IMG/VR virus record: IMGVR_UViG_3300031555_006012 | Direction: 5' to 3' (one strand) | Length of the DNA: 20,359 nucleotides | DNA from: an uncultured virus (IMG/VR IMGVR_UViG_3300031555_006012) | Lineage: Duplodnaviria; Heunggongvirae; Uroviricota; Caudoviricetes | In this document: piece after piece, positions 2,581 through 18,072 of the stretch | How positions within the stretch are numbered: the stretch's first letter is position 1 | Layout: each line of letters starts with the position of its first letter | Notes under the pieces: generated by a model | What the model was told of the DNA's origin: nothing | What the model saw: only the letters and a program-made list of their open reading frames with translations | Databases searched by the model: none | Program-made: the position numbers and the translations under genes

Positions 2581-3723
2581 TTATTCCTCCATAAATTCAG
2601 TAAAGTCTTGGTTTGCACCTGTGGTATGGATTGCCGGACGCTTGTCAGATGCGGGAACAAGGGTCGGCTTGCCCTTGGGCTTGACCACCAAGCCGCCAAG
2701 GACGGATGCGAAGGTTTTCTTTCCCATGAGCTTTTCCATTTCAGTAATGGGGATCAGGCTCTTGCGGAAAATGTCATGGTAGCCAGCGGCCTTGGCAGCG
2801 TCGATGACCGCGGCCTCGTCGCCATACTTGCGGTTGGTCTTGCTTTCGACCAACTTGAAGCCGTTCCAGTGCTTGCCATGGTTGATGGCGGCGTCCTGGG
2901 CGTAGGCAACGATCTCACTGGCCCATTTGGTGAGGTCATCCAGCTTGGAGAGGATTTCCTCAATTTCCTCATCGGTGAGGAGCGGAGGTTTGGCAAACTC
3001 GTACTTTGCCAGCTGGAGCTTGGCTTCTGCCCGGGCGCGGCATTTCACAGCAGCCTTGCAGAAGGTACACCAGGGGCCGGGGGCGAATTCACCTTCACCG
3101 TTAAATGCCATGGCGGCTTTGGGCTTAAGGGTATCTTCGGCCCAGGCAAGCAGCTCGTCCACGGTGGTAGTCCAGGTGGACACATTGTCACGCCGGGGCT
3201 GATAGACCGTCATAGCGATGGTGTCGATGTCGTACAGCCCTTCAAAGAGCCGGAGCGCCCCAAGCGCATAGAGCTTCATCTGGGGGTTATCCTCGGCTTC
3301 GACCAGAATGCCCTGGCCGTATTTGAAGTCGACGACATGCAGCAGGTGGTCGGCCACGATGAGACAGTCGCCAGTGCCAAAGCTGTCAGGGACATAGCAA
3401 GTCAGGTCCAGGCGTTGCTCAATAAGGATGAGCGGGTCGGAACAGAGCTGCTTTGCCTCTTCCAAGGCCTCAAGGATGAACTGGACATAGTCATCGGTGT
3501 GACCCTCCATCTCGTCACAGTCGTACTGGCTGACGGGGCGGGTGGAGCGCATCTTCAGCGCTTTGCGGAGCTTATGCTCGGCGAGGGCATGTGCTGCGGT
3601 TCCTTCAGCAGCAGCTTCCGTTGTCCGATCCGCGAACTCCAGCTCCTGATTAGCAGAGGGAGTACAGTTCAGCCAGCGGTGTGCGCCGGAGGGACCGAGC
3701 TTGGCGTGTTTCTCAGGAGGCAT
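2581..3723 (-). CDS. DUF2800 family Cas4/AddB-like PD-(D/E)XK nuclease
   Basis: Start reassigned to ATG 3723 (MPPEKHA, GGAGG RBS). GTGDCL...VVDFKYG nuclease motifs, QMKLYALG, and four Cys (WLNC; WCTFCKAAVKC) as in Cas4-like Fe-S ligands. Confidence 0.9.
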   Translation of the reverse strand: MPPEKHAKLGPSGAHRWLNCTPSANQELEFADRTTEAAAEGTAAHALAEHKLRKALKMRSTRPVSQYDCDEMEGHTDDYVQFILEALEEAKQLCSDPLILIEQRLDLTCYVPDSFGTGDCLIVADHLLHVVDFKYGQGILVEAEDNPQMKLYALGALRLFEGLYDIDTIAMTVYQPRRDNVSTWTTTVDELLAWAEDTLKPKAAMAFNGEGEFAPGPWCTFCKAAVKCRARAEAKLQLAKYEFAKPPLLTDEEIEEILSKLDDLTKWASEIVAYAQDAAINHGKHWNGFKLVESKTNRKYGDEAAVIDAAKAAGYHDIFRKSLIPITEMEKLMGKKTFASVLGGLVVKPKGKPTLVPASDKRPAIHTTGANQDFTEFMEE

Positions 3724-4324: not shown

Positions 4325-4702
4325 TCAAAAATATTTTTTCAAATTTTTAATTGCGGAATTGAGAGACTCCCGAACGGTGGAATGATCGAGACCCAACTCT
4401 CTGGCGATTTCACGGATCCCCATGTTCTCGAAAAAGTGGAGCTGGATAATCTGCCGCTGGCGGTCAGGGAGCTTCTTAATAGCATCACGCAGGGCGAGAA
4501 TGTCGGCATAAGTGGAGAGGTCTGCACTGTCATCGGCAAAATAGTCGCCTTCATAGCACATGGCGCTCAGAGAAGCGTGGCGGCGGGTTTCTGTGTGGTT
4601 GTTGTTGTATTCCTGACGGTCAAGGTCGATGACCAGGTTGCCCCAGTCCTCATCAACTTCGATTTCCACGATTTCGTCGATGAATTTGTACTGAATTTTC
4701 AT
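4325..4702 (-). CDS. Sigma-70 region 4 (ECF-like) HTH protein
   Basis: Start at ATG 4702 (MKIQYKF, AAAGGA RBS). C-terminal LPDRQRQIIQLHFFENMGIREIARELGLDHSTVRESL is a sigma region 4 HTH. Confidence 0.85.
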   Translation of the reverse strand: MKIQYKFIDEIVEIEVDEDWGNLVIDLDRQEYNNNHTETRRHASLSAMCYEGDYFADDSADLSTYADILALRDAIKKLPDRQRQIIQLHFFENMGIREIARELGLDHSTVRESLNSAIKNLKKYF

Positions 4703-4752
4703 AATTTCTGTTCCTTTCTTCGTGGGAAGCGAAGCGAGGAACAGAAAAAAGG

Positions 4753-4813
4753 CAAAAAAAATACCGCCGAGGTAAAGTAAAATCATTTCTGATCTTCACT
4801 TCACTTCGGCGGT
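4753..4813 (-). terminator. Long-stem intrinsic terminator (unit C)
   Basis: ACCGCCGA...TCGGCGGT stem extended by G-U pairs that only pair on the minus strand, GAAA loop, then ATTTTTTTT. Confidence 0.75.
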
Positions 4814-4819
4814 TTAGGT

Positions 4820-4856
4820 GACTCGGATGGTTACGGTCCCAGGGCTCGATAATGAA
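4820..4856 (-). promoter_or_regulatory. Two-hairpin CGAG RNA motif, copy C
   Basis: TTC-attatc-GAG, then GACCG-taaccatc-CGAGTC just upstream of the terminator. Same architecture at 5311-5350 and 6143-6175. Confidence 0.5.
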
Positions 4857-4905
4857 TCTATCTATATAAAGCTGAGGGCAGAGGGGCTACGATGCCCCCT
4901 TGGAA

Positions 4906-5103
4906 TCAGCGTTTTTTGTTTTTAGCGGCAGCAGCGATCTGCTCGGCTTCACGCTGGCCTTCTTCAATCTGCGCCCGGACTGCGTCAAGGGTAATGACAA
5001 GCCGCTGGCGGGCGATCTTCAGTTCGAGGGCAATGCTGCCATCGGGGTTGTATACTGCGTCAAACAGGCGGTTGCCTGCATCATCACGAATAGGTTTGTG
5101 CAT
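4906..5103 (-). CDS. Small hypothetical protein (paralog C of the small-protein array)
   Basis: 65 aa, GGAGG RBS. Shares the xDG-x-[VI]-x-L-xx-K and [IM]xL helix pattern with the ORFs at 5408-5608 and 6228-6395. Confidence 0.75.
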   Translation of the reverse strand: MHKPIRDDAGNRLFDAVYNPDGSIALELKIARQRLVITLDAVRAQIEEGQREAEQIAAAAKNKKR

Positions 5104-5131
5104 ATGAGTTTTCCTCCAATCATATTAAATA

Positions 5132-5170
5132 TTAGTTTCGGTAATGGTAACGGTGCTTTCTCGGATTCAC
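5132..5170 (-). CDS. Putative 12-aa leader peptide MNPRKHRYHYRN
   Basis: AAGGAGG SD 5 nt before GTG at 5170; TAA at 5134-5132. Confidence 0.35.
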   Translation of the reverse strand: MNPRKHRYHYRN

Positions 5171-5249
5171 AAGAACCTCCTTGTTCGGCGCGAAGGCCTA
5201 TCGGGGTGGGTGGGCGACTTATATTTTTGCGGTGAGAATTACAGGAAGC

Positions 5250-5314
5250 AAACAAAAAAGCCGCCACAGCCGGTCTGGAGAGGGTGTGGGCCTCTTCAGA
5301 CGACCGTGGCGGCT
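5250..5314 (-). terminator. Long-stem intrinsic terminator (unit B)
   Basis: AGCCGCCACGGTCGTCTG...CAGACCGGCTGTGGCGGCT followed by TTTTTGTTT. Confidence 0.85.
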
Positions 5315-5350
5315 CGGCTCTGTTTATCGGCCTAGCTCACTCGCGGAGTG
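5311..5350 (-). promoter_or_regulatory. Two-hairpin CGAG RNA motif, copy B (overlaps terminator stem)
   Basis: CACTC-cgc-GAGTG, then GGCCG-ataaacagagc-CGAGCC. Its last 4 nt (AGCC) are shared with the terminator 5' arm. Confidence 0.55.
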
Positions 5351-5407
5351 GATGGATTTATTCTTTTGGTAGAAACTGGCGATCGCCTCGGTATGTCGGG
5401 CAATCTG

Positions 5408-5608
5408 TCAGGCGGCGGATTCGGACTCTTCAAGCGCCGCAAGGACACGGCGAACAAATTCGAAAAGCTCGATTTCCTCAAAGAGAGGACTACGTGCTTT
5501 TTTGATGCAAAGCATTACACGGGTTCCATCAGCGGAGCGGTACACTTCTGCGAAGGGAATGTTTTCCTTCGGGGTGTGGACAAGGACCCGGCGAGGTGTG
5601 ACTTTCAT
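5408..5608 (-). CDS. Small hypothetical protein (paralog B of the small-protein array)
   Basis: 66 aa, AAGGAGG RBS. LVHTPKENIPFAEVYRSADG aligns with LVHTPDKNITVAEVFRDEDG of the ORF at 6228-6395. Confidence 0.85.
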   Translation of the reverse strand: MKVTPRRVLVHTPKENIPFAEVYRSADGTRVMLCIKKARSPLFEEIELFEFVRRVLAALEESESAA

Positions 5609-5649
5609 AACGGTTTCCTCCTTGAATTCGATTTTTAGGCCCTCAGGGC

Positions 5650-5696
5650 AAAAAAAATAGCGCCGAAAGGGTCGATTGGGAACCCCGTCGTCGCTT
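5650..5696 (-). terminator. Imperfect leader terminator (unit D)
   Basis: AGCG-A-CGA-CG-GGGT...ACCC-TT-TCG-G-CGCT stem followed by ATTTTTTTT. The 3' part is nearly identical to the unit C terminator. Confidence 0.55.
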
Positions 5697-5862
5697 TCAA
5701 GAGAGTCGTGGAAAGGCGATACTACGCCTTATGGCTCGGATGAAAGAGGCACGGAGAGATTGCGAGAAATAGAAATTTTAAGGTTGCAGGTATTTTTGAA
5801 CACGGCACACACTCCAATCTTCAGCCTCATTCATAAAAATTGCGGAGGCTTATCTAGTAAAT

Positions 5863-5891
5863 ACTATAGCAGACTTTTGTGCAATGGTCAA
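5863..5891 (-). promoter_or_regulatory. SigmaA promoter for the early/replication operon
   Basis: TTGACC-17 bp-TATAGT with extended TG. A TTGTGCAA pseudo-palindrome lies in the spacer. Confidence 0.7.
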
Positions 5892-5984
5892 TCCTAAAAT
5901 TCTACCTATTTCACTACTCAAAACTTGTGCAAGTAGCTGATTTTTGTTGAAAAACACAAAAAGTTCTTGCGTTTGAAAGAGTTC

Positions 5985-5993
5985 TGTTATAAT
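5985..5993 (+). promoter_or_regulatory. Divergent extended -10 promoter
   Basis: TGTTATAAT (TGnTATAAT) in an AT-rich region. No convincing plus-strand CDS downstream. Confidence 0.45.
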
Positions 5994-6074
5994 ATAAGCA
6001 AGCTGCCTTTTAGTGGCTTGCGCAAAATGAACGCTTTTCGCGGGGGAAGCCCCCAAAAAAATCGCATTATGCTT

Positions 6075-6143
6075 AATAAAACAGACTGCCGCCATGGCCC
6101 ACTTCTTCCGGCGTTTCCGGGAAGAGAGGACTCATGGCGGCAG
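6075..6143 (-). terminator. Long-stem intrinsic terminator (unit A)
   Basis: CTGCCGCCATG...CATGGCGGCAG (11 perfect bp plus an inner stem) followed by TCTGTTTTATT. Confidence 0.75.
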
Positions 6144-6175
6144 AACTCGTTTCAACGGTTCGGCTCGTTATGAGC
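6143..6175 (-). promoter_or_regulatory. Two-hairpin CGAG RNA motif, copy A
   Basis: GCTC-ataac-GAGC, then GAACCG-ttgaaa-CGAGTTC directly abutting the terminator. Confidence 0.55.
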
Positions 6176-6227
6176 TGTGTTGGATATGTAGGAACCTGCG
6201 ACGGTCACCTCACGATCGGGTGGCCTG

Positions 6228-6395
6228 TTACGCGGGGGTTCCTGCTGCCTGGTAGACCAGGTCAAGGAATTGTGCCAAGGACATGGATTCGTACACATTG
6301 GCTCCGGGCTTTTTCCAGCGGAGGGAAACGGCCCCGTCTTCATCGCGGAAGACTTCAGCTACGGTGATGTTTTTGTCTGGGGTATGGACCAGCAT
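6228..6395 (-). CDS. Small hypothetical protein, 55 aa (paralog A; not in the ORF track)
   Basis: AAAGGAGG RBS, ATG 6395, TAA 6230-6228. Sequence MLVHTPDKNITVAEVFRDEDGAVSLRWKKPGANVYESMSLAQFLDLVYQAAGTPA is clearly similar to ORF 5408-5608. Confidence 0.85.
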   Translation of the reverse strand: MLVHTPDKNITVAEVFRDEDGAVSLRWKKPGANVYESMSLAQFLDLVYQAAGTPA

Positions 6396-6422
6396 ATGGT
6401 ATCCTCCTTTGCATCTGGTTTA

Positions 6423-7205
6423 TTAGAACGGGAGTTCGTCGATGTTCATATAGCTATCGATGGCGGACCGTACATTTGCGGTAAGAATAGGATGCTTGCT
6501 GGAATCTGCCGCTGCGGCATAGAGGTCGGCCAGCGGCTGGTTGTAGGGGCTTTCCTCTTCCCAGGTGGAGTGACACACAATGGACACATTCCAGCGGCGA
6601 TCCACCATATACAGCTCATATTCATATTCCGCATCATTCCCTTTGTCGTCCATTTCGGTGGGGACAATGACTTTCATCAGGTAAAGGAACTGATCGCCGA
6701 AGGGGAGAATGTAGCCATCGTCGCAGACACTGACGCTCTCCTCTTCTCTGAACAGAGAGCAGTATCCGACGAAGGACTGCTCTTCAGGATAGCCGCCCAT
6801 ACCCGGTACGAGCTTGCTTTGCCAAGAGAAAAGCGGATGATTGGGATTCCCGTTGTCGTCAGCTCGGACACGCTTCAGCTTGGCATAGGTTTCCCGCTGC
6901 CAGATCTCGATGTTGTCAGAGGTCTTTTCGATCAGCTTAGAGATAAAATCGACCATGTATTTTTCGCCCGGGGTAAGGACTTCAAAATCGTGGTGGAGCA
7001 AGGCGTCAAGCGAGACCCCCAGCATATCAGCGACAGCTACCAGCATTTCGATGCTGGGAGATGTTTTGGTGTCGGCCTTATTCAGCCTGGAAATATAGCC
7101 AGCACTCACACCTGCTGCGTTTTCCAGATCGCCTATTTTGACATTCTTTTTCTTAGCCAGGTAATAAATATTGGAAAGGCACAGCCTTTTGTTGAACTCT
7201 TTCAT
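6423..7205 (-). CDS. XRE-family HTH regulator with a large unassigned C-terminal domain (candidate repressor)
   Basis: Start ATG 7205 (AAGGAGG RBS). KIGDLENAAGVSAGYISRL...PSIEMLVAVADMLGVSLDALL is an HTH_XRE. 260 aa. Confidence 0.85.
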   Translation of the reverse strand: MKEFNKRLCLSNIYYLAKKKNVKIGDLENAAGVSAGYISRLNKADTKTSPSIEMLVAVADMLGVSLDALLHHDFEVLTPGEKYMVDFISKLIEKTSDNIEIWQRETYAKLKRVRADDNGNPNHPLFSWQSKLVPGMGGYPEEQSFVGYCSLFREEESVSVCDDGYILPFGDQFLYLMKVIVPTEMDDKGNDAEYEYELYMVDRRWNVSIVCHSTWEEESPYNQPLADLYAAAADSSKHPILTANVRSAIDSYMNIDELPF

Positions 7206-7356: not shown

Positions 7357-8415
7357 TCAACTGAACTGGGACAACCATTCTAGGAACTGTTCCGTTGATT
7401 TCGTGCCTTGGGCGAGTTCTTGCCGCCATTCTTTTATGCCAGAAGTGAGGTCGGAGAACCTATCCCACGCTTCCTTATTGCCGGGATGGCGTTGCGTTTT
7501 CATTTTGTACCGCATGTAGGTCTTTCGGTATTCACGCGTGACAATGTCGGATTTTTCCTTATTGGCTCTTGCCGCCTGGGCTCCGACCTCGCGACAGGTC
7601 TTGGATTTGTTTTGAGGTGACGGATATCCACAATACACTGTATCACTGCGTCCGTCTGGCACAAAGATGTACTCGCAATTCGGGCATTTTTTAAAGTTAG
7701 CTTCGTGGTTGATGCTATTGGCCATTTCAAACAGAAGCAAGGAAATGGAGGACTTCAGTGTGTACATGGATTCAAACCCAGACTCTGTTACGACAATTCG
7801 GAAGTCGATATGCTGCATCTGCATGAAGGTGCTGTAGAACTGGCCGAAGTTTGACAGGATATTTTCTCGGGTTTCATTTTCCTCGCCGTAATAGCCGACG
7901 ATCTGATAGAACACCAGCTTGACGGTAGAGTAGACATCGGCGAAATGCAGATACGCAGACAGCATCAGCTGAAGGTTTGTCTCTCTGCCGACTTCGGAAT
8001 AAGGTGTATCTTTGAAAATATACTCCTTTACAGCATCCGGCTCATCTCTCTGGAACATAGCAACATATTCATTTTCATCGCCCTGTCGGATTGCCTGGAA
8101 CCACTCCGAGACTGTTGTCATGAATTCTACCAGGACCATTATGGCTATGACAGGGTCATACCTAGCAAACAGCTTTTCTTGGAAAGCCATCATGGTCTCC
8201 AGAAGAGTGTCAGGCGTTGCTTCGTCATCCAGTCCGGGGCAGTCAAGGATAACCTCTTTAAGTTCTGTAGGTGCAAGGCGGCAATACTCGCAGATAAGGC
8301 CTCCAACGGGATATTCCTTCAAAATCCCATCACCTACAAGGGTGTAGCTTTTGTTGTTGTTATAAAAGACAGACAGACCGTAGTCCATCATGGGCAGATC
8401 ATCTTGTGTTATCAA
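7357..8415 (-). CDS. DUF6076-like protein with C-terminal Cys (zinc-finger-like) motif
   Basis: 352 aa, TTG start with AAAGGAG RBS. KKCPNCEYIF...YC...KTCREVGA followed by a basic helical tail. Confidence 0.75.
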   Translation of the reverse strand: MITQDDLPMMDYGLSVFYNNNKSYTLVGDGILKEYPVGGLICEYCRLAPTELKEVILDCPGLDDEATPDTLLETMMAFQEKLFARYDPVIAIMVLVEFMTTVSEWFQAIRQGDENEYVAMFQRDEPDAVKEYIFKDTPYSEVGRETNLQLMLSAYLHFADVYSTVKLVFYQIVGYYGEENETRENILSNFGQFYSTFMQMQHIDFRIVVTESGFESMYTLKSSISLLLFEMANSINHEANFKKCPNCEYIFVPDGRSDTVYCGYPSPQNKSKTCREVGAQAARANKEKSDIVTREYRKTYMRYKMKTQRHPGNKEAWDRFSDLTSGIKEWRQELAQGTKSTEQFLEWLSQFS

Positions 8416-9863: not shown

Positions 9864-9904
9864 CAGGTTGTAACTTCCCATAAACTTCTCGTCGTTACAG
9901 CCGG

Positions 9905-9933: not shown

Positions 9934-9990
9934 TAGGATTTGCGAAGTTTGAGAAGTTACGAGTGTAAATTTCTGCGGAGGAGATTAGAT

Positions 9991-10416
9991 ATGACTTTTT
10001 CCGACAAGATTAAAAGATCCCGTGAAGTTGTGGGTCTGACTCAGGATGAACTGGCCGCGTTGGTTGGCGTATCCCGCCGCACTGTTACGGCCTATGAATG
10101 CACGAACGCGGTTGCTAGACGCTCCACAATCGTAAAACTGGCCCGAGCGCTGAAGGTCTCTGTAAGATACCTCACTGACGAGGCATGCACCGATCCTCTG
10201 GCTGACATTGAAAAGGATGATCATGTAGAAGAAGCCAGACGGTTATACGGTGCCAGCGGTGCAAGGGATGTTGAAGCCCTGCTGCACGAGAATGCTGCCC
10301 TGTTCGCGGGTGGCGAGCTGTCCCAGGATGAGAAGGATGCATTCTTTGAAGCTATCACCCAGGCTTACTTTGCCAGTAAGAGCGAAGCAAAGCGGAAGTT
10401 TGGCCACAAAGAATAA
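9991..10416 (+). CDS. XRE-family HTH repressor (ImmR-like)
   Basis: Start ATG 9991 (GGAGGAG RBS). GLTQDELAALVGVSRRTVTAYE HTH, directly upstream of an ImmA-like peptidase. Confidence 0.9.
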   Translation: MTFSDKIKRSREVVGLTQDELAALVGVSRRTVTAYECTNAVARRSTIVKLARALKVSVRYLTDEACTDPLADIEKDDHVEEARRLYGASGARDVEALLHENAALFAGGELSQDEKDAFFEAITQAYFASKSEAKRKFGHKE

Positions 10417-10489
10417 CAGTCCGTTTTATAGGACACAAGAGTTGATAGACTTGTCATACTGGAGAGACTCTTCAAAGGAGGGTTGAATT

Positions 10490-11044
10490 GTGACATACAA
10501 TGCTATATGCGAGTCGGTCGAACGGCTGAAAAAGAAGTACGGTGAGACCGATCCATTTCGATTGTGCAAGGCAATGGGGATCCTACTGCTGTTCCAGCCA
10601 ATGGGAAAGCATGATACCGCCATTAAAGGCTTTTTTATGAAGTGTAAGCGTGTACGGTCTATTACCGTAAATAGCGACCTGCCGGAGATAATCCAGAAAA
10701 TTATTGTGGCCCATGAGCTTGGACACGCGACGCTGCATGAAGGCAGTGGGGTCCATGCTTTTCACGAAGTGGCCCTGTTCGACCAGGCTTCCGATCTGGA
10801 GCGCGAGGCGAATCTTTTCGCGGCAGAGTACCTGTTGGAAGATGAAGAGGTCCTGGATGTCCTGAACCGTGACACGACATTCTTCAGCGCTGCTGCGCTT
10901 CTTCGGGTCCCCATGGAAATGCTGGATTTCAAATTCCGACTGATGAAATGGAAAGGCTACAAGCTGATGGAGCCTCCGATCCGCGCTCGGGGTGACTTCA
11001 TGCGGAACATGGAGGTGCCGGATGATGCAGACTACTATTCCTAA
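10490..11044 (+). CDS. ImmA/IrrE-family metallo-endopeptidase (antirepressor)
   Basis: 184 aa. AHELGH zinc motif and EREANLFAAEYL. GTG start with AAGGAGG RBS. Confidence 0.92.
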   Translation: MTYNAICESVERLKKKYGETDPFRLCKAMGILLLFQPMGKHDTAIKGFFMKCKRVRSITVNSDLPEIIQKIIVAHELGHATLHEGSGVHAFHEVALFDQASDLEREANLFAAEYLLEDEEVLDVLNRDTTFFSAAALLRVPMEMLDFKFRLMKWKGYKLMEPPIRARGDFMRNMEVPDDADYYS

Positions 11045-13248: not shown

Positions 13249-13430
13249 TTTCATCCCTCCCTTATTCTATTATTTTAATATGAAACAAATAGGAGGGTTC
13301 GTAATATAAATATTAACTTCTGCTTCAAAATAGCTAAAATTGATGATACAATTATGAAAATCGGAGATCCGTTGATATTTGTATTATTAATTGCGGAGAA
13401 TCGATTATTACGGAATGGTTGGTGACTTGC

Positions 13431-13922
13431 ATGGCTACTGAAGCAGAGATGAGACAGCATCGTTGTTGCTTTACCGGGCATAGACCCCAGAAGCTGACAC
13501 GACCTGCTTGGCTTGTTAAAATGGTTCTGGAGAAGGAAATTAAGCGGGCGATAAGTGACGGCTATACTGTGTTTATTACTGGCATGGCCCAGGGCGTGGA
13601 CATTTGGGCAGCTCAGATTGTATTAAAGCTCCGTGATAAAGGTGAACCGATCAAACTGATATGCGCCAGCCCGTTTGAGGGCTTTGAGGAGCGCTGGGAT
13701 ATGAAGTGGCAGACCCAATACCGGGAAATCCTTGCTGCTGCGGACTTGGTTCGGTACATCTGCCCCAGTTACAGCAAAGCCTGTTTCCAGATTCGCAATG
13801 AATGGATGGTAAACCATTCGGCGCGGGTGATTGCCGTTTTCAATAATACCCCGAGTGGCACTTTTAATACGATCGAATATGCGATTGCACAGGGTGTGCA
13901 GGTGGAGTTCATAAAGGGTTAG
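13431..13922 (+). CDS. SLOG superfamily protein (YspA/DUF1273-like)
   Basis: CCFTGHRP, FITGMAQGVDIWAA, RNEWMVNHS and SGTFNTIEYA motifs. Confidence 0.88.
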   Translation: MATEAEMRQHRCCFTGHRPQKLTRPAWLVKMVLEKEIKRAISDGYTVFITGMAQGVDIWAAQIVLKLRDKGEPIKLICASPFEGFEERWDMKWQTQYREILAAADLVRYICPSYSKACFQIRNEWMVNHSARVIAVFNNTPSGTFNTIEYAIAQGVQVEFIKG

Positions 13923-14052
13923 CAAGAAAAAAGTTGTGATTTCAGGAGTGATTATTGTTTTTTCTCGACTCATATGTTATCATATATATTGAATTTTTGT
14001 ACCCGATCGTGGGGTTAGATTTATATTTCGGTCTCAAAAGAGGTGAATCGCG

Positions 14053-15216
14053 GTGCCAAATGACAGCTTAAGCAATGCAAAAAATAAGAAAAATGATGAG
14101 TTTTACACCGTTTACGATTATATTCAAAGGGAAATGAATGCTTACTTGGAGTACGACCCCGATGTTTTTAGGGGGAAAACAGTGCTTCTGCCATGTGATG
14201 ATCCTGAGTGGAGCAACTTTACAAGATTTTTTGCTCAAAATTTTGAAACCCTGGGATTGAAAAAGCTGATTTCTACTAGCTATGCTGTGGACAGTAAAAA
14301 GGCCAAGTATGGTTTTGAAGATCGAGATGGTTACCAGCAACTCACGATTTTTGAAATGATGTCGCCGCAGTATGATGAGACAATCACAATGTCTCGCGGA
14401 AAGATCTATACTCTGACAAGAGACATGAATCGGTCCGGCGTGGTAGATATCGAGGATCTTCAATGGCACTATTTGGAGGGGGACGGTGACTTCAGAAGCG
14501 ACGAGGTCAAGGCGCTTCGCGATGAAGCCGATATTATTGTTACAAATCCTCCATTTTCTCTTTTCAGAGAGTTTGTTGCCTGGGTAATGGAAGCTGGAAA
14601 AAGCCTTGTGATTATTGGTAGCCAAAATGCTATTACATACAAAGAGATTTTCCCCCTTTTGAAGGAAAACAAACTGTGGATTGGTGCTACAAATAACGGC
14701 AAAGATATGGTTTTCGAAGTGCCGGAAGGTGCCGAAGTGGCACCCAAAGACCGAGAGAAGGCAGCCAAGCTGGGGTATGTTGGAAACTACACTCGCCTGG
14801 GCAATGCCTGCTGGTTTACTAACATTAATCATGGAAGACGCCATCAGCCAATGAGCTTAATGACGAAAGCCGATAACGAAAAGTACAGCAAGCATAAACA
14901 AATTCGTGAAGCAGGTTATCAAAAGTACGACAACTACGATGCCATAGAAGTTCCTTTTACTGACGCTATCCCTTCCGACTACGATGGGGTAATGGGTGTC
15001 CCTATTACTTTTATGGACAAGTACTGCCCTGAGCAATTTGAAATCATCTGGCAGGCAAGTGGAAACGCCTATGCCAATGCTCCTAGTGGCGTGATGGAAA
15101 TGCTCAAGTTCGACCCAACTGTAAAGTACGGTGGGGGCCTTGGTGCAGCAGTAGTTGGGGGAAAAGCAGTATACTCTCGTATTCTCATCAAGAGGAAGGT
15201 CGTGAAGTCCGAATGA
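14053..15216 (+). CDS. Adenine-specific DNA methyltransferase, EcoRI family
   Basis: 387 aa. KNDEFYT, PCDDPEWSNF, GDGDFRS, catalytic IIVTNPPFSLFR, KYDNYDAIEV and GVMGVPITF motifs. Confidence 0.92.
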   Translation: MPNDSLSNAKNKKNDEFYTVYDYIQREMNAYLEYDPDVFRGKTVLLPCDDPEWSNFTRFFAQNFETLGLKKLISTSYAVDSKKAKYGFEDRDGYQQLTIFEMMSPQYDETITMSRGKIYTLTRDMNRSGVVDIEDLQWHYLEGDGDFRSDEVKALRDEADIIVTNPPFSLFREFVAWVMEAGKSLVIIGSQNAITYKEIFPLLKENKLWIGATNNGKDMVFEVPEGAEVAPKDREKAAKLGYVGNYTRLGNACWFTNINHGRRHQPMSLMTKADNEKYSKHKQIREAGYQKYDNYDAIEVPFTDAIPSDYDGVMGVPITFMDKYCPEQFEIIWQASGNAYANAPSGVMEMLKFDPTVKYGGGLGAAVVGGKAVYSRILIKRKVVKSE

Positions 15217-16388
15217 AAACCACACTGCTAATTGACTTGACAATTGACGAAATCTGCAAAGGGTTTGTCTATAATGAGCTTGAGGGCAAGGGCTTGTTTG
15301 GGTGGTCTGGTAAGTTGGTTATTCAGCCGGAGTACCAGCGTAACTATTTGTACGCCGAACAAAAGATGGAAGAGGCCGTTATCAGGTCGGTACTCAATGG
15401 TTATCCTTTGGGCCTACTGTATTTCAACAAAGTTGGTGAAAACCAATACGAGGTTTTGGATGGGCAACAGCGTATAACTAGCCTGGGACGGTTTATGACT
15501 GGAAAATTCCCTTTGCTTGATCATGAGGGAATGCCTCATTATTTTGATGCTTTACCAGCAGATATGAAAAAGACGATTCGTGAAAGCAAGCTCACGATTT
15601 ATATTTGTGAGGGAGAAGAATCCGAAATCAAAGCCTGGTTCAAAACAATTAACATCGCAGGCATTCCACTCAATCGTCAGGAGATTTCTAACGCGGTCTA
15701 CTCAGGTCCGTTTGTAACGAAAGCTAAAGAAGTTTTCAGTAATAGCGGTAATTCAAGCGTTCAGAAATGGGCGCATTACATTAAAGGCACTGTTAGCAGG
15801 CAGGATTTCCTCCGCGTTGCTCTCGAATGGGTAGCTCGGAGTAATGACCATGATGATGTAGATGCCTATATGAGCAAACACCGTTTTGACACAAATATCA
15901 CAGAACTGGAAAACTATTTCAATAGTGTGATTGATTGGATAGACGGCGTGTTTTCAGATGTGGAGTCTGAGATGCGCGGTTTGGAATGGGGGCATCTGTA
16001 TGAGGCCTACCACAACAACCCATATGACCCTGCGGCGGTTTCTGCGAAGGTTCACGAGTTGTACGCTGATGCTGCTGTGAAAAAGCGGGCAGGTGTGTTC
16101 GAGTACATCTTGGGCGGATGTACAGATACGCGACTGCTTGAGATTCGAGTATTTGAGGAATCTACTAAGAAGGCCGTTTACACTCAGCAGACCGATAAGG
16201 CTAGAAGAGAGCAGCGGTCAAACTGCCCTCTTTGCGCTCTTGGAACTGACAACAATGCCCGACGCATTTGGAAGTATTCTGAAATGGATGCCGACCATGT
16301 AACGGCATGGAGTAAAGGCGGCGCAACCGATATCAGCAATTGCCAGATGCTGTGCAAAACTCATAACCGCGCGAAAGGCAACAAGTAA
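15213..16388 (+). CDS. DUF262 (GmrS/ParB-like) plus HNH endonuclease
   Basis: 391 aa. QPEYQRNY and DGQQR (DUF262); CPLC...DADHVTAWSKGGATDISNCQMLCKTHN (HNH). ATGA overlap with the MTase. Confidence 0.92.
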   Translation: MKTTLLIDLTIDEICKGFVYNELEGKGLFGWSGKLVIQPEYQRNYLYAEQKMEEAVIRSVLNGYPLGLLYFNKVGENQYEVLDGQQRITSLGRFMTGKFPLLDHEGMPHYFDALPADMKKTIRESKLTIYICEGEESEIKAWFKTINIAGIPLNRQEISNAVYSGPFVTKAKEVFSNSGNSSVQKWAHYIKGTVSRQDFLRVALEWVARSNDHDDVDAYMSKHRFDTNITELENYFNSVIDWIDGVFSDVESEMRGLEWGHLYEAYHNNPYDPAAVSAKVHELYADAAVKKRAGVFEYILGGCTDTRLLEIRVFEESTKKAVYTQQTDKARREQRSNCPLCALGTDNNARRIWKYSEMDADHVTAWSKGGATDISNCQMLCKTHNRAKGNK

Positions 16389-17945: not shown

Positions 17946-17997
17946 AAAAAGAAAATCTCCCTTTGCAACCATTGTATCAATGATTGCAAAGGGAGAT
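17946..17997 (-). terminator. Terminator hairpin immediately after the tRNA CCA
   Basis: ATCTCCCTTTGCAA...TTGCAAAGGGAGAT stem followed by TTTCTTTTTT on the minus strand. Confidence 0.85.
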
Positions 17998-18072
17998 GGT
18001 CCGAGTGGGGAGATTCGAACTCCCGGCATCTTGAACCCAAATCAAGCGCCCTACCAACTGGGCCACACCCGG
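17997..18072 (-). tRNA. tRNA-Pro(TGG)
   Basis: 76-nt cloverleaf: CCGGGTG/CACTCGG acceptor, anticodon arm CTTGA-TT TGG GT-TCAAG, GGGAG-TTCGAAT-CTCCC T-arm, encoded CCA. Confidence 0.97.

Follow-up and report, generated by a model that had tools for sequence, protein, structure and literature searches.

A conserved box-and-hairpin RNA motif abutting three terminators upstream of the replication module of a Heliusvirales-type prophage

Architecture of the locus

The 20,359-nucleotide DNA of an uncultured virus of the Caudoviricetes (IMG/VR record IMGVR_UViG_3300031555_006012), which we call the window and by which we mean the whole stretch at this length, carries on its minus strand three copies, termed A, B and C, of an RNA motif that leads directly into an intrinsic terminator. 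The three copies are real, selected RNA elements, made up of a conserved box, CGAG(C/U), and a covarying hairpin with a bulged A, referred to here as hairpin 2; in the window the box is part of a further hairpin, hairpin 1.

The host element is a prophage of the Candidatus (Ca.) Heliusvirales type. Read along the minus strand from about position 9900 to 32, it encodes a Y-family polymerase, a DUF6076 protein, an XRE-type protein and a small open reading frame (ORF), ORF-A, followed by copy A. There follow a promoter-like site, a fourth terminator, ORF-B, copy B, ORF-C, copy C and a hairpin that buries a ribosome-binding site (RBS), and finally genes for a 125-residue sigma-like protein, a 65-residue and a 112-residue protein, a DUF2800 protein, an Enc34-type SSB and a family-A DNA polymerase (PolA). 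The isolated Oscillospiraceae phage NatCom_27610 (Ca. Heliusvirales) has an identical gene order. DUF2800, DUF2815 and PolA are given among the nine signature genes of the Ca. Heliusviridae, and temperate phages of this type are reported from the gut samples of more than 90% of participants (PMC9226167). A DNA search of phage records returned one 87-nucleotide (nt) match, which falls within the sigma-like gene; a search of viral contigs with the sigma-like protein as sole query found no relative.

Direct reading of the letters located all three copies where the original prediction had placed them, each with a terminator that starts RCCGCC within the predicted 0-6 nt of hairpin 2 (2 nt in A, an overlap in B, 6 nt in C). 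Their parts are as follows.

6163..6175, minus strand: copy A hairpin 1, GCTC-ataac-GAGC, including box 1 (CGAGC, 6167-6163); read directly and present in the minimum free energy (MFE) fold
6144..6160, minus strand: copy A hairpin 2, AACCG-ttgaaa-CG(A)GTT, with the bulged A in brackets
6075..6143, minus strand: terminator A, stem-loop 6143-6086 of about 24 base pairs (bp), then tctgTTTTaTT; -39.9 kcal/mol (-39.1 in a second computation)
5338..5350, minus strand: copy B hairpin 1, CACTC-cgc-GAGTG, including box 1 (CGAGT, 5343-5339)
5311..5332, minus strand: copy B hairpin 2, GGCCG-ataaacagagc-CG(A)GCC
5250..5313, minus strand: terminator B, stem-loop 5313-5260 of about 22 bp, plus the U-run TTTTTTGTTT; -38.4 kcal/mol
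4844..4856, minus strand: copy C hairpin 1, weak, TTC-attatc-GAG (4856-4845), including box 1 (CGAGC, 4848-4844)
4820..4838, minus strand: copy C hairpin 2, GACCG-taaccatc-CG(A)GTC
4753..4813, minus strand: terminator C, stem-loop 4813-4762 of about 22 bp, plus the U-run TTTTTTTT; -29.7 kcal/mol

Hairpin 2 has the same order of pairs in all three copies: two outer pairs x-x', a C-G pair, the bulged A, a second C-G pair and a G-C pair. In A, B and C, respectively, its loop has 6, 11 and 8 nt and that of hairpin 1 has 5, 3 and 6 nt. Two details of the original prediction needed correction: hairpin 2 of copy A is present but had been drawn one base too wide at each end (6143-6161), and the overlap of hairpin 2 with the terminator in copy B is real but comprises 3 nt of the GCCGCC arm rather than four. 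In terminator A, GCCGCC begins 2 nt past hairpin 2 and a 4-nt spacer, tctg, precedes TTTTATT; in terminator C, ACCGCC begins 6 nt past the hairpin. All three are intrinsic terminators in the sense of a G+C-rich hairpin followed by a U-run.

The whole-copy folds of A, B and C have energies of -49.3, -47.9 and -36.9 kcal/mol, with z-scores of -5.6 to -6.1. In single-sequence MFE folds, copy B forms both hairpins, copy A only hairpin 1 and copy C only hairpin 2; in the fold of copy A, the 3' half of hairpin 2 pairs with the U-tract region. Relative to copy A, the change of GAGC to GAGT in hairpin 1 of copy B is compensated by that of GCTC to ACTC, and the GCTC...GAGC pairing of copy A is retained in its A-type relatives (L052, L145 and L132; L-numbers denote related loci compared with the window).

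Hairpin 2 covaries among related loci

The number of copies in the window, taken alone, is a post hoc statistic of modest weight: the pattern CGAG-N4-14-CCG-N5-14-CGAG has three matches, only at copies A-C, against a shuffle mean of 0.70, and 2 of 100 shuffles reach three. It is because of the evidence from relatives that the motif goes beyond chance. We compared the window with 80 viral loci gathered through the DUF2800 protein, and with 80 genome loci and 80 metagenome loci gathered through an alignment of the sigma-like protein. A descriptor consisting of a box [C/A/T]GAG[C/T], a hairpin NN-CC[G/T]-loop-[C/T]GAG-NN in which pairing of the NN positions was not required, and a terminator of -15 kcal/mol or lower was run on both strands of the window and of the 160 viral and genome loci (2,142,856 bases).

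This gave 27 distinct matches, of which 7 are antisense. Among the 20 matches on the operon strand, sixteen are intergenic and upstream of the sigma-like gene, namely the three window copies and 13 others; the other four (L012/L031, L068/L139, L096 and L123) were excluded by position. Both outer pairs of hairpin 2 are complementary in 12 of these 16 instances and one pair in the remaining four; the 11 excluded or antisense matches have two, one and no outer pairs in 1, 5 and 5 cases. As a chance background we used the matches listed from a pattern scan of the viral collection, where both outer pairs are complementary in 16 of 140. That scan, made with the A-type pattern, produced at least 142 matches in at least 120 loci; those listed include two with a terminator and no true relative, and they served solely as background. 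The 80 metagenome loci contributed seven further distinct operon-strand instances and one antisense.

The bulged A is found without exception in the 19 distinct sequences of hairpin 2, where both C-G pairs are invariant and the other pairs are distributed as follows.

Outer pair 1: A-U 9, C-G 7, G-C 2, G-U 1
Outer pair 2: A-U 6, G-C 6, U-A 1, U-U 6
Inner pair: G-C 14, G-U 4, U-U 1

In all, 32 of the 38 outer-pair cells pair, a value that none of 10,000 shuffles reached, such shuffle counts not being probabilities for related sequences with about eight outer-pair states. An alignment of hairpin 2 only (A6, 15 sequences) has 93.3% of its cells paired as compared with 79.8 +/- 2.6% after shuffling (reached in 0 of 500), and partners slid out of register give at most 52%. 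The covariation of the outer pairs proposed from the window (AA/TT, GG/CC, GA/TC) is thereby borne out, and the relatives add AG/CT, AT/AT, CA/TG and GA/TT. A DNA contig from another sample, about 94% identical near copy C, has AT-CCG...CGAG-AT in place of GA...TC, as decoded from the table, and in the upper part of hairpin 2 whole blocks compensate among C-type relatives (UCA/UGA, UAC/GUA, UACCG/CGGUA).

The three cassettes are paralogous

Each copy falls within the 3' untranslated region that follows a small ORF:

6228..6395, minus strand: ORF-A, 55 residues; stop codon 60 nt before box 1 of copy A
5408..5608, minus strand: ORF-B, 66 residues, a paralogue of ORF-A; stop codon 64 nt before box 1 of copy B
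4906..5103, minus strand: ORF-C, 65 residues; stop codon 57 nt before box 1 of copy C

A homologue of ORF-A (46% identity) lies upstream of the A-type motif in L052/L053; relatives of ORF-A and ORF-B precede A-type motifs in L052, L145 and L132, and relatives of ORF-C precede C-type motifs. Profile-profile comparison of ORF-C with the ORF-A/B family gives a probability of 68.7% (E = 4.6e-5, 54 columns), and AlphaFold2 models of ORF-B and ORF-C, with predicted local distance difference test (pLDDT) scores of 90.3 and 87.6, both comprise four strands followed by a helix, a prediction that extends to ORF-A as a member of the ORF-A/B family. Given this homology and the shared predicted fold, the array is a set of three diverged paralogous cassettes, each with a small protein gene, a motif and a terminator.

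Paralogy would also be expected if the motif were a relic of tandem cassette duplication or an operator acting at the level of DNA, with no RNA function, and hairpin 1 of copies A and B is indeed a DNA palindrome. However, nucleotide identity between the cassettes is almost nil outside the motif, which has been kept; the changes in hairpin 2 are compensatory and the instances strand-specific; and palindrome spacings of 5, 3 and 6 nt, together with the bulge in hairpin 2, are ill suited to a dimeric DNA operator. We consider this explanation highly improbable, and it is already disfavoured.

The small ORFs belong to no Pfam, PHROG or NCBIfam family, and gave no usable match in the ESM Atlas and nothing at E <= 0.001 with Foldseek. 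Structure comparison gave only weak matches, with the same top entries for both models: the best is PURA repeat III (Z 4.3, root mean square deviation 5.5, 62 residues aligned), ahead of Pur-alpha and PC4-type domains (Z 3.0-3.8; Borrelia Pur-alpha, Z 3.5). The order of secondary structure elements agrees with a PUR/PC4-like fold, that is, a four-stranded sheet with a C-terminal helix. On the strength of these models, single-strand nucleic-acid binding by the small proteins is a lead, no more.

If they did bind RNA, the array could work as a relay: each small protein, once synthesised, would bind the site that follows its gene and open the terminator of the same cassette, whose long stem would be impassable for ordinary antitermination. 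Transcription would proceed one cassette at a time and reach the sigma-like gene and the replication module after a built-in delay. Which protein recognises which RNA would be decided by the differing outer pairs (AA/TT, GG/CC, GA/TC) and loops of hairpin 2. In relatives of the AG/CT type, the preceding small ORF encodes a four-cysteine zinc ribbon (E 0.02-0.04 with the Pfam Com model, below its cut-off). Since the motif is thus shared across unrelated small proteins, its core is not tied to one protein family and a cassette-specific binder does not fit; we regard the relay as quite unlikely.

Conservation extends into the terminator

Conservation was compared among six leaders at the position of copy C and among four A-type units:

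Upstream sequence: C-position 53%, A-type 25%
Box block: C-position 94%, A-type 72%
Hairpin-2 stems: C-position 83-85%
Hairpin-2 loop: C-position 28%
Terminator 5' base/arm: C-position 96%, A-type 71%
Terminator tip: C-position 49%, A-type 27%
Terminator 3' base/arm: C-position 89%, A-type 54%

The box block of copy C, GTTCAT..CGAGCCCTGG, is 94% identical among its six relatives as compared with 53% for the sequence that precedes it, and hairpin-2 loops and terminator tips vary freely. The 5' arm of the terminator is better conserved than the 3' arm (96 versus 89%, and 71 versus 54% in A-type units), a difference based on six and four sequences. In A-type units the 5' arm (GCCGNNAYGAG, as in terminator A) contains a conserved YGAG that is paired through G-U. 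Such a third YGAG box was considered as a general feature of the motif; it is real in the A-type relatives and absent in B and C, and was given up in that general role. The original proposal of a conserved RNA structure therefore holds for hairpin 2, with its covariation, its bulged A and stems conserved around a free loop, and is weakly supported for hairpin 1. From the bulged-A hairpin, the conserved single-stranded box and the unequal conservation of the two arms, all read from sequence, binding of the motif by a protein appears plausible.

This pattern bears on one alternative, namely that motif and terminator form a constitutive 3'-end part after each small gene, which enhances termination, stabilises the RNA or directs its processing by RNase, with no regulated switch. 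The position of every copy, 10-64 nt past a stop codon, would fit such a part, as would the promoter-like site that follows terminator A, and no antiterminator alternative fold is evident. Long near-perfect stems are moreover typical substrates of RNase III. A constitutive part leaves unexplained, however, the conserved single-stranded box, the invariant bulged A and a constraint on the 5' arm beyond pairing; in addition, some control of read-through is required by the lack of a promoter-like site behind terminator C for the sigma-like gene and its module. We consider this account doubtful.

Terminators at the gate of the replication module

Between copy A and the replication module, four more features complete the picture.

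5863..5891, minus strand: promoter-like site, TTGACC-17-TATAGT, 10/12, with TG before the -10 hexamer
5657..5739, minus strand: fourth related site, with box CCGAGCC (5739-5733), hairpin GGCG-tagtat-CGCC (5728-5715) and terminator (5695-5658 plus U-run, -16.8 kcal/mol)
4705..4747, minus strand: RBS-burying hairpin of the sigma-like gene, in which TTTCTGTTCCT pairs with AGGAACAGAAA; two pairs are compensatory among six relatives
4325..4702, minus strand: sigma-70 region-4-like gene (125 residues), the first gene of the conserved DUF2800/SSB/PolA replication module

The fourth-site box with its flank, CCGAGCCATAAGG, is found again before a terminator in L131. From the promoter-like site, a leader of about 200 nt runs to the fourth terminator (5657-5891, minus strand); this arrangement may produce a short terminated leader RNA.

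The promoter-like site is the only one on the minus strand between 4700 and 6200, and copy A, which precedes it, closes the upstream transcription unit. Three box-carrying terminators (the fourth site, B and C) separate it from the sigma-like gene and the DUF2800/SSB/PolA module. No promoter-like site was found on the minus strand between 5863 and 4702, including the stretch from terminator C to the sigma-like gene; the replication module is therefore reachable only through read-through of the fourth terminator, B and C. The 50 nt from the end of terminator C to the ATG of the sigma-like gene are occupied by the RBS lock. Analogous locks are present in nearly all leader classes.

A lock of this kind raises the possibility of a translational switch of the anti-anti-Shine-Dalgarno or zipper type, in which the motif pairs with post-terminator sequence that locks the RBS of the next gene. 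The pLS20 zipper attenuator is comparable in layout (PMC13401043), and copy C is followed by such a lock. In AG/CT-type relatives such complementarity does exist between the motif and the anti-Shine-Dalgarno stretch that follows the terminator (L004, L090, L094 and L125, duplex z -2.7 to -3.3), with compensatory changes in L125. The window copies, in contrast, have no excess complementarity to the downstream 110 nt as compared with shuffles (z +1.3, +0.8 and +1.1 for A, B and C); together with their A- and C-type relatives they range from +0.4 to +1.7, with 0.0 for L052 and -1.2 for L132, and no locked RBS follows copies A and B. For the window, we therefore hold a translational switch to be very improbable.

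The AG/CT-type leaders (L004:1620-1760; L090, L094 and L125 at about 2600-3000) are of interest in themselves: GGAGCCG(N5) is complementary there to the Shine-Dalgarno-pairing stretch behind a long hairpin, and in L004 the long-range pairing with the U-run would itself form a terminator.

The length of the terminator stems speaks to whether control is local. Average terminator stems are given as 7-9 bp, and a 15-bp stem is reported to make TerR of pLS20 resistant to the processive antitermination of conAn (PMC10325885). Compared with these values, stems of 22-24 bp speak for local rather than processive control. A processive site of the lambda nut, HK022 put, Tn916 canT or pLS20 conAn2 type would modify RNA polymerase through box and hairpin, alone or with a protein, so that this and later terminators are ignored. 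The layout of small gene, box plus hairpin and terminator resembles nutR and putR, and both RNA-only and RNA-plus-protein systems are described from Gram-positive mobile elements (PMC11658703; PMC8191782). The sigma-like protein is also weakly similar to Q-type antiterminators (PF06530, E 0.0025; phrog_79, E 0.00048), but these matches lie below threshold and are confined to the helix-turn-helix region. One site per transcript would suffice for a processive mechanism, whereas each of terminators A-C has its own copy, 0-6 nt away; the stems are of the kind shown to be resistant to conAn; and no boxA-like sequence occurs near the copies on the RNA strand. We judge processive antitermination to be unlikely.

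We hypothesize instead, tentatively and at somewhat less than even probability, that the motif acts in cis as a site at which a factor controls read-through of the terminator next to it. The box and hairpin 2 would be the docking site of a trans-acting factor, and here we infer the binding, the identity of the factor and the direction of read-through alike. The bound factor would hold the adjoining, sequence-conserved 5' arm of the terminator, which could then not nucleate, and RNA polymerase would read through; antitermination of this local kind, site by site, would gate entry into replication. A conserved single-stranded box, an abutting bulged-A hairpin and a 5' arm constrained beyond pairing fit the model of a factor that holds the arm.

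Several observations weigh against this hypothesis. No RNA-binding regulator domain of a known kind is present among the proteins of the window. Terminator A, with a promoter-like site behind it, may simply end an operon. The core motif is common to cassettes whose small proteins are unrelated, being of the four-strand-plus-helix type in some and zinc ribbons in others. Hairpin 1 is kept in A-type units and copy B, weak in copy C and absent in the AG/CT type, and since it is not general we regard the box sequence as the general feature in its place. Six C-type relatives (L002, L045, L081, L102, L283 and L303) have a U-U mismatch in outer pair 2 and can fold instead in a shifted register. The kinship of the compared hairpins and the small sets behind the arm difference, both given above, count here as well.

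A partner RNA acting in trans was also considered. Between the putative leader RNA (5860-5650) and the three sites there is no complementarity (z +0.2 to +0.8), and the window contains no other strong RNA partner besides the trivial antisense strand.

Relation to the DUF2800 RNA and other leader classes

The motif had been thought possibly related to the DUF2800 RNA. That family exists (Rfam RF02960, type Cis-reg) and occupies the same position in six related loci, but the window motif is not a member of it. The covariance model has no match in the window at the gathering threshold (60.2 bits), nor at E <= 10 on 4500-6500 and 4690-4930, and the architecture differs. RF02960 scores 132.6 bits in L113, where its match stops 43 nt short of the sigma-like gene, and 137-148 bits in the viral loci L060, L067, L071, L079 and L080; it is found in none of 15 loci carrying the window motif (0/4 and 0/11). 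Its 5' signature, GGCTCAA-N5-30-ACAAGTAAA, is present in all six RF02960 loci and has no match in the window, and a signature of this kind lies within 400 nt upstream of six sigma-like loci.

The two RNAs are alike in that they occur in the same phage family, directly upstream of the sigma-like gene that precedes DUF2800, and contain an intrinsic terminator. Copy C with terminator C lies 50-150 nt upstream of that gene, and RF02960 matches end 43-170 nt before it; in L113 the match is followed by an RBS lock, as is copy C. RF02960 also has a box, UAUUGAGCAGG, just before its terminator that resembles UUAUCGAGCCCUGG of copy C, this UAUYGAGC box being the sole feature that both RNAs share. They differ in that RF02960 begins with a long 5' hairpin of 50 nt, with conserved loops and a conserved GGCUCAA, which is followed by the linker ACAAGUAAAU, whereas the window is without these; RF02960 has a helix that encloses the terminator and no CCG...CGAG hairpin with a bulged A; and it occurs once per locus as opposed to three motif copies in the window. 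The window motif is thus a positional analogue, an alternative leader class in the same system, and not a member of RF02960.

RF02960 reportedly goes back to Weinberg et al. 2017. The main text of that paper does not mention DUF2800. In the literature we found no paper on a DUF2800 motif or RNA, papers on DUF2800 being judged by title and abstract.

Among 151 distinct regions of 230 nt upstream of sigma-like genes, 136 contain a terminator and 20 the window motif. We conclude that several leader classes alternate at one position within the phage family and that the window motif is absent from Rfam 15.

A further class is seen in L099, L100 and L117 (about 2830-3000), where CCGC(A/G)GAGC(C/U)G in front of the terminator is paired with GGCUC(U/C)(U)GCGG on its far side; the latter stretch also matches the Shine-Dalgarno sequence AAGGAGC(C/U)G, which makes a covarying anti-anti-Shine-Dalgarno arrangement. 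In two distant relatives the Rfam pemK RNA (RF02913, 41-42 bits) is found just downstream of the sigma-like gene (L148:3611-3706 and L153:3632-3713).

A conserved structured RNA signal thus lies at the gate of a Heliusvirales-type replication module. The occurrence of several unrelated-looking leader RNAs at one position, including the functionally unexplained DUF2800 RNA, provides natural interchangeable parts that could reveal a shared function. Reporter and binding work can start from the CGAGC box, the bulged A and the covarying pairs, whose pairing can be disrupted and then repaired, and the terminators are a further case of very long stems within an operon, not at its end.

Other features of the window

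The DUF6076 protein of the early operon (7357-8415, minus strand) has a cysteine-rich basic C-terminal region, and homologues are encoded upstream of C-type leaders in L081 and L082; it is a candidate regulator. Between terminator B and ORF-C, a mini-ORF of 12 codons (5132-5170, minus strand) with a GTG start and a strong AAGGAGG 6 nt upstream may encode a leader peptide. A divergent XRE and ImmA pair lies at 9940-11044, and the right part of the window contains accessory genes, a tRNA and host genes. Near the prophage end, an accessory block on the plus strand (13419-16388) encodes a YpsA/SLOG-family protein, an EcoRI-like adenine methyltransferase and a GmrSD-N plus HNH nuclease. A tRNA gene (18000-18072, minus strand) followed by a terminator with a 20-bp stem (17955-18072 together) adjoins a TraX-like gene and the host gene for the YchF GTPase; this region may be the attachment-site end of the prophage.

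Comparison with known RNA control systems

Like lambda nut, HK022 put, Tn916 canT and pLS20 conAn2, the window motif is a cis element of nascent RNA in an early operon of a mobile element, placed between a small gene and terminators, and the boxA and boxB of lambda are echoed by its single-stranded box and hairpin. It differs in having one abutting copy per terminator and long stems, and no sequence likeness to these elements was found; canT is an element of 341-452 nt without a defined motif. The lambda boxA consensus, GCTCTTTA, has no minus-strand match with up to one mismatch within 4700-6200, and no N-like arginine-rich peptide was recognised among the window proteins.

In the Com system of phage Mu, as here, a small protein gene lies directly upstream of an RNA hairpin, in Mu that of the mom mRNA, which controls the next gene. 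The small proteins of the window, however, are not zinc ribbons; those of the AG/CT-type relatives are, the match to the Com model being sub-threshold.

Like the window, the pLS20 zipper attenuator has a weak stem-loop ahead of a long central one, with a further element downstream (PMC13401043). It differs in that the long hairpin of the window is itself the terminator and copies A-C lack upstream-downstream complementarity. Pairing of upstream sequence with sequence behind the hairpin, of the zipper type, is seen in the AG/CT-type relatives alone.

There remain the systems in which a protein acts on a terminator at its own site. ANTAR targets consist of two tandem hairpins with hexanucleotide loops that have A at position 1 and G at position 4, the second of which overlaps the terminator; the loops of the window (hairpin 1: 5, 3 and 6 nt; hairpin 2: 6, 11 and 8 nt) do not follow this rule, and no CAT/PRD, ANTAR or HutP domain is present among the window proteins. 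In arrangement, nevertheless, the ribonucleic antiterminator (RAT) bound by LicT and SacY, the ANTAR targets and the HutP sites each place a small RNA structure just 5' of, or overlapping, the 5' arm of a terminator, and this is the mechanism that we favour for the three copies described here.

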